64,000 nt of DNA from Candidatus Thorarchaeota archaeon (GCA_019057475.1 DXJO01000010.1:224001-288000), one strand, 5' to 3'. Positions 37,265-52,306 are shown, numbered from the stretch's first letter. The notes: generated by a model from the letters alone, not told the origin. Program-made: numbers and translations.

Positions 37265-40200
37265 CTATGCTACTATCTTCACTGGTTGCAGATTAACAAC
37301 TCGGTGTTCGCCTTCCACACTGTCGTATTCCACCATACCAACGAGCTCGCCCTCAGCGCCCGGCTGAAGCTCGAACTCAATCTCCACGACATTCATAGCG
37401 CCGGCCTCCACCGTGCCTATTGCCTCGCTTCTTATCGAGTCAGTAAGGTCCGGAACACCCAGTATCACTTGGACGTTCTGCATCGCGTTCTCCGAGCCGT
37501 TCCGTATCACCACTCCGAATACAACCTTGCCTTCACGGATCTTGTACTCTACCGCAACCTCCATGCCCGGTTCCAGACCAGGACTCGCAGGCTCTGCAGT
37601 CGTAACAAACTCCTCCACGAAGTACTCCTCGCGTACACGCTTCGTAACAATAGCTAGCCCTATCAGCAGACCCACAATCCCGGCCACAGGCACTACCCAG
37701 TGAACCGTTGGCATGAAGTCCGCTGCATCCAGAAGACCATCTCCGTCAGAGTCAGTGCTCAGAGGGTTCGAGCCGTACACGAAAATCTCGTCATAATCGC
37801 TCAGGGTGTCTCCGTCTGAATCCCATAGAGTTGGGTCTGTTAGGTAGACATTGTACTCCGCGCCATCGCTGAGGCCATCCGAATCTGTGTCGTTCGACAA
37901 GGGGTTCGTGTCGGATGTGAATATCTCAATGCTGTCACTCAAGCCATCCCCGTCCGAGTCGGCCGACGTTGGATCAGTGTGATGGGCAATAACCTCTTGA
38001 TAGTCATTGAGACCGTCAAGATCTGTGTCCGGTTTCCACGGGTCTACACCCAGGTCGACGTGCGTTATGACTTCATCGTAGTCGCTCAGACCATCCCCGT
38101 CTGAGTCAGCGTTTGTCGCATTGGTGTGGTATGTTTCAATCTCCATAAAGTCGGATAACAAATCTCCATCAGTGTCATTGCTCAAGGGGTTCGTTCTATG
38201 CTCGAAAATTTCTGGGCCATCCAAGAGGAGGTCTTCATCTGAGTCACTATTCAAGGGGTCCGTTCCAAGTGCTACCTCATAACCGTCTTCCAAATCGTCG
38301 TTATCTGAGTCTGGGTCAAGTGGCATTGTACCGTAGTCGCGCAGCTCCTCAAGGTTGCCCAGACCATCATTATCAGAGTCCCAATCATCATCAGATATCG
38401 TCGGTGAGAACGTGGTGTTCGTTGTCGGGTCTGTTCCGGTCAAGAAGACCTCTTCCCAATCCGTCAGAAGGTCGGAATCTGTGAAGTTGGAGAGCGGATC
38501 GCAGCCGTAGTCGAGTATCTCCTCCCCGTCTCCGAGACCGTCTCCGTCGGTGTCATAATCGAGGGGGTCGGTGAAGTAGTCTTCGACCTCTTCCCAGTCT
38601 GATAGGTCATCCGAATCTGTGTCTTCCTCTAGGGGATCTGTGCCATAGATGTGCATTTCATCACCATTACTGAGCCCGTCGTCATCTTCGTCGTCATTGA
38701 GGTCTGAAGTCCCGTCACCATCTGTATCCTTGATTCGCGGGTCGGTTTCTGTTAGGACGCACTCCTCCCAATTAGTGAGCAGATCTCTGTCCTCATCATC
38801 TGCCCCGTCTAGAGTGCCATCGGAATCTGTATCGTTAAGCCGCGGGTTCGTCAGCGTGAGCCGAATCTCTTGGCTGTTTGTTAGATTGTCTTCGTCCATG
38901 TCCCAGTCAGCATCCGATAGGCCGAACGGATTGCTGCTGTACAGGGTCGGGTCGGTCAGTGTCATATTGACTTCGTGATAATCGGTTAAACCATCGTTGT
39001 CCGAGTCTCTATCCCTCGGGTTGGTGAATACCAGTCTAAGTTCTTGCTGACCACTGGCATTGTAGAACTGCAGGAAGAAACCATTCACCTCTTGACCATC
39101 AAGGAGGAGATCCCCGTCGCTATCTTCCTTCAAGGGGTCTGTATTGTGGATGTCCAGTTCATCACCATCTCCGAGCCCGTCTCCATCAGAATCGTACTGG
39201 AGCGGGTCGGTTTCGAAGACCATGATCTCGTCGTAATCATTCAATCTATCCATGTCAGTGTCGGTTGAGTTCAGCAGAGTGTGGTACGTGAGAGCCTCCT
39301 CTCCATCCTCCAACCCATCGTCGTCTGTGTCTCTATCGTTGGGGTCACTGGAATAGAAGAAGAGCTCATCCCAATCCCCTAGACCATCTGCATCCGAATC
39401 CATGTTCCGTGGGTCAGTTTCACTGGTGAATATCTCGTAGAAGTCTGATAGTAGATCTCCGTCTGTGTCCAACAGGGTACAATTGGTTTGATACATGTAG
39501 ATCTCATCATGATTGTTGAGCCCATCGCCGTCCTCATCGTCAAGGTTGTCATCAATTCCGTCTCCATCCGTGTCTCTTAGGGTGGGGTCGGTGTGGCTGT
39601 TCCATATCTCGTCGTTATCTGCCAGATTGTCTCCATCTGTATCATCCAAGAGCGGAGAAGTTCCATAGATGTTCACTTCGTCGCCATCGCTCAATGAATC
39701 GAAATCTGAGTCTGGATTTTCAGGGTCAGTTCCCTCTTCCAGTTCCTCCTTATCGTTGAGTCCATCTCCGTCGACATCGGCTTCTGTGGGATCAGTCCCA
39801 TGAACCTGCCATTCATCCCAATCGCTAAGCCCGTCGCCGTCTGTGTCATTTGAGTTGGGGTTGGTCCCAAGTTCAATCTCCTGCTTGTCGTCAATCATGT
39901 CGCTATCGCTGTCTGGATTGTTGGGGTCAGTCAAGTATTCATTCACTTCATCTCCGTCCGAGTCCCAGAGCGTCGCATTGGTGAGCGAAACGTAGACCTC
40001 GTAGTAATCATCTAGGCCATCTGAGTCCGAGTCCGTTCCAGTCGGATTAGTATGGTAGATGATGTACTCCTCGTAATCACTAAGCCCATCGTTATCCGTG
40101 TCCATATCAGTCGGGCTCGAACCTGCGAAATTAACTTCTATGCCATCCCAGAGGCCATCTCCATCAGTGTCAGGGTTCGTCGCGTTTGAGCCGTAACCAT

Positions 40201-51125: not shown

Positions 51126-52306
51126 TAGGCAAGGGTTGGCTTCTTCGAGAAGACGAACGTGGCAGCTAGAATCGCAAGTACCGAAAAGCCAACGAGCTTG
51201 GCAATTGGAATCAACACATCGAAGAGATTCAGTCCTTTGAAGGCCGTATCAATGAGCACTTTCATGCCTTGGTTCATAGGTAGAAAGTCGTCTAGCATAC
51301 CCACGTCGATGAAGAATCCTGACAGTATTAGCGTGCCAAACATCAAGAACAGGAACATCTGGTTTGCCTGAAGACGAGACGATGAGAGGGATGAGATTAG
51401 GATTCCAGTGGATGATCCCGTTAGCGATGTTAGGCTCATAATGAGCACTAGGATTGCGAACTCTGTATTCAGCGTCAAGTTGAATGCAATAACCCAGAGC
51501 GAGACGAGGAGAAGTGATTGAAAGAAGCCGATTATGACGTAAGAAATCACTTTCGAAATAACAACCTCAAGCCTGCTGGTTGGTGTAAGCAGCATTCTTC
51601 GCAGAGGTATATCACCAACAATAGACTGAGCGGAAGTCATCGCAATGCCAAGGTAACTTGAGAAGATCACTATGAATCCCCCGAAGACGATTTCCACGTA
51701 CCCTCCCGATGGCATGAATTCAATCATCATGGCCGGGAACACTTCTGATTCAATCCAGAGATGCGTTGCCCGGAACATAATGGATGCCCCCTGAACTACT
51801 CCCATTACTGTCGACTGTTCAATAAAGTTGGTCGCGTCCACATGGACAATGACATAGGTTGGCTCATTCAGAGTCAGGTTTCTCTCGAATCCATCCGGAA
51901 TAACAACGTAACCCATGATCTCCTTGTTGTACATGTCTTGGTACGCGTCTGCTTCGTCTGTGTAGAAAATCAGCTGTTCGGCGAGCTCTTCTAGATAGCT
52001 TGTGAAGTTCTCCGACAGGTCTTCTCCCTCATAGGTTTCAATCGTGTCGTGGTCGATTAGGCCAATGATCGGTCCTCCCGTGAATTGTTCTGTGTCTTCC
52101 ATATCTCCCATATCACCCCCTCCCATTCCCGATAGGTCGTTTTCCTGGGTGACGTAATACAGCATTCCAATTGAAACTGCAGGAAGTAGGAATATCAAGA
52201 AGAGGGCAACTCTGTCCTTCACTATGAGCCGCAGCTCCTTAGCTATCATGTTTCGAATCCGTCGCGAAGGTTTAGTGAAGACCTCGGCCATGTTATGCTT
52301 CCTCAT
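51125..52306 (-). CDS. ABC-2 type permease with extracellular domain
   Basis: KELRLIVKDR, GYVVIPDGF, RRMLLTPTSRLEVVISK, LSGFF; start may be ATG 52291. Confidence 0.92.
   Translation of the reverse strand: MRKHNMAEVFTKPSRRIRNMIAKELRLIVKDRVALFLIFLLPAVSIGMLYYVTQENDLSGMGGGDMGDMEDTEQFTGGPIIGLIDHDTIETYEGEDLSENFTSYLEELAEQLIFYTDEADAYQDMYNKEIMGYVVIPDGFERNLTLNEPTYVIVHVDATNFIEQSTVMGVVQGASIMFRATHLWIESEVFPAMMIEFMPSGGYVEIVFGGFIVIFSSYLGIAMTSAQSIVGDIPLRRMLLTPTSRLEVVISKVISYVIIGFFQSLLLVSLWVIAFNLTLNTEFAILVLIMSLTSLTGSSTGILISSLSSSRLQANQMFLFLMFGTLILSGFFIDVGMLDDFLPMNQGMKVLIDTAFKGLNLFDVLIPIAKLVGFSVLAILAATFVFSKKPTLA

Follow-up and report, generated by a model that had tools for sequence, protein, structure and literature searches.

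An ABC-2 transporter cassette with a subtilase-GIFT membrane protein in Thorarchaeota and other Asgard archaea

RESULTS

Five packed genes at a thorarchaeotal locus

The stretch of DNA analyzed here (the window) comprises 64,000 nucleotides of a Candidatus Thorarchaeota genome (GCA_019057475.1, DXJO01000010.1:224001-288000) and lies on contig 42 of an assembly of 3.34 Mb and 96% completeness; the sources of near-identical and related proteins are likewise named Candidatus Thorarchaeota. An earlier reading of the sequence alone (the original prediction) had singled out five minus-strand genes in it as a candidate new system, and those genes are the subject of this study. In order of transcription, they encode an ATP-binding cassette (ABC) permease of the ABC-2 type (P0001), a long ABC ATPase (P0002), a large membrane protein that combines a subtilase (S8) domain with a GIFT domain (P0003, the S8-GIFT protein), a short ABC ATPase (P0004), and a giant protein dominated by TSP3 repeats (P0005). 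The coordinates of the genes and of their domains are collected in Table 1.

The five genes are packed and probably translationally coupled. As read from the DNA, the permease and long ATPase genes meet in a TAATG junction with a 1-nt overlap, the long ATPase and S8-GIFT genes are separated as TGA + 7 nt + ATG, and the short ATPase and giant genes share an ATGA overlap. The S8-GIFT and short ATPase genes overlap by 8 nt given the GTG start of the latter, for which an alternative TTG start lies two bases past the S8-GIFT stop. Coordinates and junctions (-1, +7, -8, and -4 nt) are exactly as originally described. The predicted inventory was likewise borne out, with one permease and two different ATPases with intact motifs recovered by Pfam and motif reading, and a transmembrane (TM)-anchored S8-GIFT protein and a 2,258-amino-acid (aa) TSP3-repeat type I membrane protein recovered by Pfam and hydropathy.

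Table 1. Features of the locus, in window coordinates
Feature	Position	Strand	Basis
ABC-2 (type V exporter-like) permease P0001, 393 aa	51125-52306	-	Pfam ABC2_membrane_3, 98.9 bits
Long ABC ATPase P0002, whole gene	49425-51125	-	Open reading frame
P0002 N-terminal cytoplasmic domain, residues 1-262, two tandem helix+beta-barrel modules, TrmB effector-domain-like	50340-51125	-	Pfam, AlphaFold2 (AF2) model, Foldseek
P0002 nucleotide-binding domain (NBD) and C-terminal domain, residues 263-566	49425-50339	-	Pfam ABC_tran, 94.8 bits
Putative pseudo-subtilase-GIFT type I membrane protein P0003, 1,464 aa	45023-49417	-	Pfam, alignment, AF2 model, hydropathy
P0003 S8 (subtilase) domain, degenerate active site	47978-48970	-	Alignment to Tk-SP (3afg)
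P0003 super-beta-sandwich, residues ~494-750	47168-47938	-	Model (pLDDT 80-93), VIA
P0003 GIFT (GATase-like alpha/beta) domain, residues ~1069-1244	45686-46213	-	Profile, VIA
P0003 TM helix (~1365-1393) and helical-hairpin cytoplasmic tail to residue 1464	45026-45325	-	Hydropathy, model
Short ABC ATPase P0004, 330 aa, second distinct NBD	44038-45030	-	Pfam ABC_tran, 93.9 bits
Giant type I membrane protein P0005, 2,258 aa	37265-44041	-	Pfam TSP3_bac (263.9 bits), beta-propeller, hydropathy
P0005 cytoplasmic tail, predicted beta-sandwich, residues 2138-2258	37268-37630	-	Sequence, language-model features
Cytoplasmic 420-aa TPR protein, perhaps a sixth gene in the Thorarchaeota operon version	35473-36735	-	Pfam TPR
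Putative operon promoter region, divergent intergenic, 247 nt	52307-52553		Inferred from position upstream of the permease

The transporter and the S8-GIFT protein recur together across Asgard genomes

Synteny had been proposed as a check on the system, and within the family of the window (f1) it held: order and orientation of the genes were the same in all 15 complete f1 loci fetched, and also in the sister family f2. As proof, this is weak by itself, since synteny within the family extends to unrelated flanking genes, namely those for an 815-aa protein upstream and a GNAT fusion downstream. Indeed, flanks that are surely unrelated and yet syntenic are what one would expect if the genes were chance neighbors, that is, an ordinary ABC-2 transporter that sits beside surface-protein genes in a syntenic region. 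Co-occurrence across the phylum was decisive. Two markers were used, a post-S8 profile for the S8-GIFT family and a profile of the long-ATPase N-terminal domain (E < 1e-25). Among 224 Asgard genomes outside f1, 39 gave strong matches to both markers, in identical sets, and 185 had neither; counted by family, 8 had both and 22 had neither. Within f1, each marker was found in 73 of 76 genomes, and those lacking one were only 71 to 84% complete.

The distant cassettes, each read from a single locus, also differed in architecture. Four contigs from a protein collection, including one from Hodarchaeales and one from Lokiarchaeota, carry a tightly packed series of short ATPase, permease A (permA), permease B (permB), long ATPase, and S8-GIFT genes, and the f9 and f24 loci show that same order. 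The f12 locus has the Thorarchaeota order of permease, long ATPase, S8-GIFT, and short ATPase, with no giant gene, and in f19 the ABC genes are divergent from, yet adjacent to, the S8-GIFT gene. In f7, the long ATPase, permease, and short ATPase genes form an operon of their own (G030 contig 3) and the S8-GIFT gene stands alone (G030 contig 1). Marker sets that are identical over all 224 genomes, adjacency that recurs in different gene orders, partners that are both retained at separate loci in f7, and the start/stop overlaps all speak against chance neighbors, a reading that we strongly disfavor and find scarcely credible. With agreement in some eight families, several gene orders, and retention when unlinked, the ABC-2 transporter and the S8-GIFT protein are very likely a functionally bound, conserved unit.

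P0001 has six TM helices and, between TM1 and TM2, an extracytoplasmic loop of ~150 aa, as judged by hydropathy; its orthologs across the family of the window are 64 to 70% identical, and the permA and permB proteins of the Lokiarchaeota and Hodarchaeales cassettes are 25 to 31% identical to it. Both ATPases are orthologous along their whole length to those of the distant cassettes. P0002 shares 31 to 34% identity with the distant long ATPases over residues 21 to 559. P0004 is closer to the Lokiarchaeota and Hodarchaeales short ATPases (40 to 44%) than to the long ATPases of the same cassettes (34 to 37%).

Two further observations concern genes next to distant S8-GIFT genes. In three of the four two-permease cassettes from the collection, from one Lokiarchaeota, one Hodarchaeales, and one further metagenome-assembled genome, a 63- to 72-aa two-helix open reading frame (ORF) lies directly after the S8-GIFT gene (L053:14919-15137, L055:14612-14812, and L056:14700-14891) and may encode a further small subunit. 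The stand-alone S8-GIFT gene of f7 (L034:8743-13346, minus strand) adjoins genes for a 275-aa TPR/SNAP-like protein and a 1,045-aa protein with a below-cutoff MIT match.

P0003 is a predicted pseudoprotease with a GIFT domain and a conserved tail

The order of domains in P0003 is a signal/anchor, a propeptide-like region, the S8 domain, a super-beta-sandwich, two beta-sandwiches, a disordered Gly-rich linker, the GIFT domain, another beta-sandwich, a TM helix, and a helical tail. Pfam places it in Peptidase_S8 (PF00082, 138.6 bits) and, just above the cutoff of 27.2 bits, in IFT52_GIFT (28.3 bits). A full-length ortholog is present in single copy in 24 of 24 same-family genomes.

The S8 domain matches the Thermococcus subtilisin Tk-SP (3afg, E 8e-41), and in the alignment the catalytic Asp and His are present as Asp174 and His217, with Asp311 in place of the oxyanion Asn and Ala418 (codon 48164-48166) in place of the nucleophilic Ser. 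The degeneracy extends well beyond the window. In 19 orthologs of the Thorarchaeota clade, the nucleophile position is occupied by Ala, Thr, Ser, or Val, and the Asp or the His is gone in several; in 34 Asgard representatives, the Ser was kept in only 4, the His in 11, and the Asn in 5. The S8 domain is still the best conserved region of the protein, with 68 to 75% identity within the family and, in the most distant orthologs, 45 to 55% identity compared with 20 to 35% for the other regions. Loss of the active site family-wide in the best-conserved domain argues for a selected, noncatalytic domain and not for a decaying gene. On the basis of these alignments, we regard the S8 domain as a pseudoprotease under selection, in agreement with what had been proposed.

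The loss of catalytic residues across the family bears on a possible role in peptide handling of the LanFEG and LanP type, with an ABC-2 immunity or export transporter and an anchored subtilase that processes the exported peptide. Lantibiotic Lan clusters do have a make-up resembling that of the cassette, namely one or two ABC-2 permeases, one or more ATPases, and a membrane-anchored S8 protein. Besides the degenerate active site, two further points speak against it: LanP has nothing that corresponds to the GIFT and sandwich domains, and the neighborhood showed no genes for a precursor peptide or a modification enzyme. We consider such a role highly improbable.

The region after the S8 domain (residues 480 to 1464) was modeled with AF2 (pLDDT 71), and the model was compared with solved structures. 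The super-beta-sandwich has the predicted fold of the N-domains of glycoside hydrolase (GH) enzymes, namely GH15 glucoamylase/glucodextranase, GH94, and GH116, with VIA Z scores of 18 to 22 and a root mean square deviation (rmsd) of ~3 Å over 233 to 246 residues to 1ug9, 1lf6, 4zle, and 3s4c. The GIFT domain named in the original prediction proved to be real: besides the Pfam match, a profile of the orthologs matches IFT52 (5fms) in two stretches (E 1.3e-10), and the modeled domain aligns with IFT52 at a VIA Z of 22.1 and an rmsd of 2.3 Å over 192 residues. The C-terminal TM helix (~1363 to 1393 by hydropathy) is followed by a cytoplasmic tail of ~70 aa. The pattern of this tail, a basic stretch and two helices ending in D-x-G-G/E-V/L, recurs in the proteins of the Lokiarchaeota, Hodarchaeales, and third cassettes, and its retention across lineages argues for a cytoplasmic contact. 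A complex prediction of P0001 with residues 1040 to 1464 of P0003 scored 0.01, which counts neither for nor against binding.

A second S8-GIFT protein is encoded elsewhere in the genome of the window, on G000 contig 39 (L061:6447-9665, plus strand). It is 1,072 aa long (~970 to 1,060 aa in relatives), has the Asp, His, Asn, and Ser intact, and shows a DUF4350 match and a weak MBTPS1_4th (GATase-like) match. No ABC genes adjoin it, and three other large S8 genes lie around it. Judged by its residues, this protein is a possible active counterpart of the pseudo-subtilase. The idea that its protease domain is specifically like that of eukaryotic site-1 protease (S1P) was not upheld, Tk-SP being far closer.

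Two competent ATPases, one with a TrmB-like N-terminal domain

Both ATPases contain Walker A, Q-loop, LSGG signature, Walker B, and H-loop sequences, and they are only ~36% identical to each other. The motifs read are GESGAGKTT, LSGGQQRR, LLMDEPTSGLD, and VVTHY in P0002 and GASGAGKTT, LSGGERKR, LLLDEPTTGLD, and VIISHD in P0004. The nearest NCBIfam model to P0002 is of the DrrA type, with a score below the cutoff.

The N-terminal domain of P0002 matches Regulator_TrmB (PF11495) with 34.7 bits (cutoff 22.2; E 1.5e-8). Its AF2 model (pLDDT 80) gave TrmB as the sole significant solved match in Foldseek (3qph, E 6.7e-6; 2f5t, E 7.5e-5), and TrmB regulators are its nearest neighbors in the ESM Atlas, its own cluster aside. 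Sequence searches of the PDB with the domain and with its profile found nothing significant and did not reach TrmB. In Pfam, the TrmB winged-helix DNA-binding domain (PF01978) has no match in P0002, an ABC NBD being fused in its place. The domain is present in single copy in the genome and is kept in the Lokiarchaeota and Hodarchaeales long ATPases. The models thus indicate that the long ATPase carries a TrmB effector-domain-like module, and it is reasonable to suppose that this module gates the ATPase by a ligand, perhaps a sugar. The suggestion that the system is possibly sugar gated was in that sense a fair one.

The first N-domain module (profile positions 17 to 111) is also matched by stand-alone ORFs of ~150 to 170 aa in G066, G074, G081 (f21), G134, G160, and G163 (f1), indicating that the barrel module exists as a separate small protein as well.

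A giant TSP3 protein found in only two families

P0005 consists of a signal peptide, a beta-propeller (~40 to 400), a tract of ~1,700 aa made of bacterial thrombospondin type 3-like (TSP3) repeats, a TM helix (2115 to 2137), and a 121-aa cytoplasmic tail. Residues 400 to 2120 are 23% Asp and contain 52 [DN]xDxD[GN] motifs, and TSP3_bac scored in 14 stretches of the protein; repeats of this composition would be expected to bind calcium. The giant gene follows the short ATPase gene only in families f1 and f2. Over 17 loci, the length of the protein is 2,196 to 2,274 aa, and it aligns end to end with 52 to 62% identity within the family and 42% in f2.

The original prediction had placed this protein at the center, as a giant adhesin at the end of the operon that a GldAFG-like machine exports, positions, or remodels. 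The ATGA overlap with the short ATPase gene, which recurs in most of the 17 loci, the constant length, and the alignability along the whole protein favor such a reading. So does a Hodarchaeales locus in which a 1,359-aa Beta_helix protein follows the cassette (L055:14847-18926, plus strand); that protein has a faint NosD match and N- and C-terminal hydrophobic segments, and the locus gives a second example of the module being extended by a large surface protein. Yet at least six more Asgard families have the core of the cassette, and the giant gene was absent from 12 of 12 loci read outside f1 and f2, among them those in f7, f9, f12, f19, and f24 and on the four collection contigs. No full-length relative of the giant protein was found in the five cassette-bearing genomes of other families that were searched. 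With a signal peptide and a TM anchor of its own, P0005 needs no dedicated exporter, and transport of folded 2,000-aa proteins is not known for ABC-2 transporters. As the giant protein was found only in f1 and f2, adhesin export is an unlikely core function, and the adhesin-centered claim, at most partly right, is not supported. We read P0005 instead as a later addition to the operon, a partner or client specific to the lineage, and not as the cargo that defines the machine.

The cytoplasmic tail of P0005 has relatives elsewhere. With 30 to 32% identity and E values of 4e-10 and 2e-7, it matches a domain inside ~760- to 790-aa proteins of two other Asgard families (L067:802-3168 and L068:796-3066), which contain PCI/E3_UFM1_ligase/DDRGK-type winged helices. 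The L067 protein has a Vps28-like C terminus, and its tail-like domain gives a faint GAE_BBS1 match (E 0.06). The language-model features of the P0005 tail are nearest to clusters of eukaryotic coatomer-beta/gamma and adaptin appendages (0.90, 192 of 256 features), a value below the reliable mark, and a PDB sequence search with the tail found nothing significant.

Neighboring genes

Beyond the giant gene lies a co-directional gene for a TPR protein, at a distance of 52 to 338 nt in 14 of the 17 giant-gene loci and of 530 nt in the window; it may belong to the Thorarchaeota version of the operon. The 530-nt gap in the window is filled by a 94-aa ORF with about three hydrophobic segments (36873-37157, minus strand). 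Its candidacy as the counterpart of the small two-TM gene of the Lokiarchaeota and Hodarchaeales cassettes was rejected, as it has no tblastn match in relatives and the same gap is only 52 to 338 nt long in the 14 relatives measured. The ORF is either a lineage-specific insertion or no gene at all.

On the other side, divergent from the operon, is the gene for the 815-aa cytoplasmic protein (52554-55001, plus strand), which belongs to no Pfam family and is syntenic in most same-family loci with 33 to 43% identity. A mutual comparison of this protein, an 804-aa protein encoded upstream of the Helarchaeota S8-GIFT gene, and the P0005 tail found no similarity. Two other large proteins are encoded in the window. 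A giant ORF of 2,308 aa (18464-25390, minus strand) has weak Ig-like (Big_1, Invasin_D3, Filamin), FG-GAP, and Wzt_C-like matches, all below the cutoffs. Near the operon, a surface-type protein of 999 aa (55228-58227, plus strand) has DUF7948, SBBP beta-propeller repeats, and one TSP3 repeat.

DISCUSSION

A proposed envelope module

We consider it probable that the locus is the Thorarchaeota version of an Asgard-wide envelope module, in which an ABC-2 exporter-type transporter with two competent ATPases works with a dedicated, noncatalytic subtilase-GIFT subunit. As to cargo and mechanism, we infer the following. In an ABC-2 transporter whose two NBDs form a heterodimer, P0003 would serve as the fixed extracytoplasmic subunit and would dock on the permease with its TM helix and with the conserved helical tail on the cytoplasmic side. 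An extracellular ligand, either a peptide segment or a glycan or glycoprotein, would be bound by the dead protease head and the GH-N-like sandwich. ATP hydrolysis might then export a substrate to the head or move the head mechanically, as in FtsEX, LolCDE, and NosDFY, in which hydrolysis drives an extracytoplasmic partner protein. Through the TrmB-like domain, some small molecule of the cytoplasm, possibly a sugar, may gate this hydrolysis. The stalk protein of Thorarchaeaceae, of fixed length and expected to bind calcium, would have joined the operon as a partner or client and would not have been the original purpose of the machine.

Several points weigh against this proposal. The link between the subunits is one of gene organization and co-occurrence, and the related genomes are not independent, such that the genome counts overstate the number of independent events, which is closer to the eight or so families. 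It is unusual for one permease to be accompanied by two different NBDs, and a permease homodimer is only assumed. The likeness to TrmB is at the level of the domain as a whole. P0003 scores 24.6 bits against ABC_transp_aux, below the Pfam cutoff of 34.7. The ATPases fall far short of the GldA model (TIGR03522, cutoff 402.6 bits), with 99.8 bits for P0002 and 133.3 for P0004, and no GldF or GldG NCBIfam model matched P0001 or P0003 at an E value of 1e-5 or less. Finally, nothing points to the cargo or ligand; no glycosyltransferase, precursor peptide, or lipid gene was seen in the window or in the fetched loci of relatives.

That last point touches most directly on whether the cassette is an exporter of glycans or lipid-linked glycans, of the Wzm/Wzt or TarGH kind. 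The TrmB-like domain would then sense a sugar substrate or precursor, and the ectodomain would receive the glycan or pass it on. Much in the components is compatible with such a function: an ABC-2 permease with NBDs of the DrrA/NodI/GldA type, an effector domain whose fold binds sugar in TrmB, a super-sandwich with the fold of GH15, GH94, and GH116 N-domains, a GIFT-sandwich-TM module that matches OST48, and a heavy load of N-x-S/T sequons (22 in P0003 and 42 in P0005). There is also a precedent in Wzt, where an extra domain on the ABC-2 NBD recognizes the exported glycan (PMC9445017). However, neither P0002 nor P0004 has a Pfam match to Wzt_C or another carbohydrate-binding module, none of the fetched loci showed a gene for a glycosyltransferase or a lipid carrier, and likeness to a GH N-domain fold does not show sugar binding. 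Glycan export would, moreover, leave the strongly conserved dead protease cleft unexplained. We regard it as possible but doubtful.

The envelope module that we favor is kept in at least eight Asgard families and would join a standard ABC-2 engine with three unusual parts: a dead protease under strong selection that is like human S1P and OST48 in layout, an ATPase domain resembling a metabolite sensor, and, in Thorarchaeota, a putative calcium-binding stalk of fixed length whose cytoplasmic tail is reminiscent of the appendage domains of vesicle coats. Should all of these assemble into a single complex, they would represent a new type of ABC-driven envelope machine and would offer a tractable entry, by heterologous expression and cryo-electron microscopy, to the surface biology of Asgard archaea and to the origin of the GIFT-domain membrane proteins of the eukaryotic endoplasmic reticulum and Golgi.

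Comparison with known systems

A close parallel in layout is the gliding-associated GldA/F/G transporter of Flavobacterium and other Bacteroidota, together with the generic ABC_transp_aux (PF09822) systems. These likewise combine an ABC-2 permease and an ATPase with a large extracytoplasmic GIFT accessory that has a C-terminal TM anchor, and the substrate is not established there either. The description of the locus as a GldAFG-like machine thus holds for the layout of transporter and GIFT accessory, which works alike, but not for identity, as the GldA, GldF, and GldG equivalog thresholds were missed. The Asgard cassette differs in having two different ATPases, one with a TrmB-like N-domain, and an accessory of ~1,460 aa with three further elements, namely a dead subtilase, a super-sandwich resembling GH N-domains, and a cytoplasmic tail that is conserved. 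Its host is an archaeon with no outer membrane and no type IX secretion system.

Two eukaryotic proteins resemble P0003 in the order of their domains. S1P (MBTPS1/SKI-1; 8uw8 and 9csd) runs from a signal and prodomain through S8, a beta-sandwich, a GATase/GIFT-like domain, and a beta domain to a TM helix and a short tail. The sandwich and GIFT domains of the P0003 model align with those of 9csd and 8uw8 at a VIA Z of 17 (281 to 289 residues), and a profile of P0003 orthologs weakly matches 8uw8 in the same region (E 0.19). Unlike S1P, which is an active protease without an ABC partner, P0003 lacks the nucleophile and the oxyanion residue and has ~570 extra residues, the super-sandwich and others, between S8 and GIFT; its S8 domain is nearer in sequence to the archaeal Tk-SP than to S1P. 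With OST48, the modeled GIFT, beta-sandwich, and TM regions align over 321 of 410 residues at a VIA Z of 18, and the overall rmsd of 19 Å indicates the same domains in another arrangement. OST48/Wbp1 (DDOST) is a subunit of the eukaryotic oligosaccharyltransferase (OST), and no OST genes lie near the cassette. Published Asgard WBP1 homologues are restricted to Heimdallarchaeia (Eme et al., PMC10307638), and P0003 is not one of them, as far as tested. What P0003 appears to share with S1P and OST48 is thus a likeness of layout and not an established descent.

A bolder view would make the cassette an Asgard forerunner or cousin of eukaryotic secretory-pathway membrane proteins, which in Thorarchaeota links a giant extracellular calcium-dependent stalk, serving as a fiber for adhesion or sensing, an ATP-driven machine, and coat- or ESCRT-like cytoplasmic partners. 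It draws on the accessory domain order shared with S1P and OST48 and on the adaptin/coatomer-appendage-like tail, which also occurs inside the PCI/UFM1-ligase-like proteins of Lokiarchaeota and Heimdallarchaeota. We think this decidedly improbable.

Retention of an S8 fold for binding or scaffolding has parallels in CspC and CspA of Clostridioides difficile and in MycP of mycobacterial type VII secretion. MycP is TM anchored, and the membrane complex of type VII secretion depends on it for stability in a way that does not involve proteolysis (PMC5082899). The best NCBIfam models for P0003 include mycosin (101 bits) and CspC_non_triad (45.6 bits), all below the cutoffs. Csp and MycP differ from P0003 in being bacterial, in having the germination apparatus or the type VII secretion system as partners, and in having no GIFT domain; there is no orthology. 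Compared with WzmWzt, FtsEX, LolCDE, and NosDFY, the Asgard cassette has a partner protein of another kind, and none of those systems has two distinct NBDs with a TrmB-like domain.

The combination of genes had not been recognized as a described one, and the literature on Asgard GIFT domains, on OST48/WBP1/IFT52, and on S1P/GldG gave no description of it. Set beside the systems above, the cassette is real and conserved and appears to be a hitherto undescribed variation on the pairing of an ABC-2 transporter with a GIFT accessory protein.

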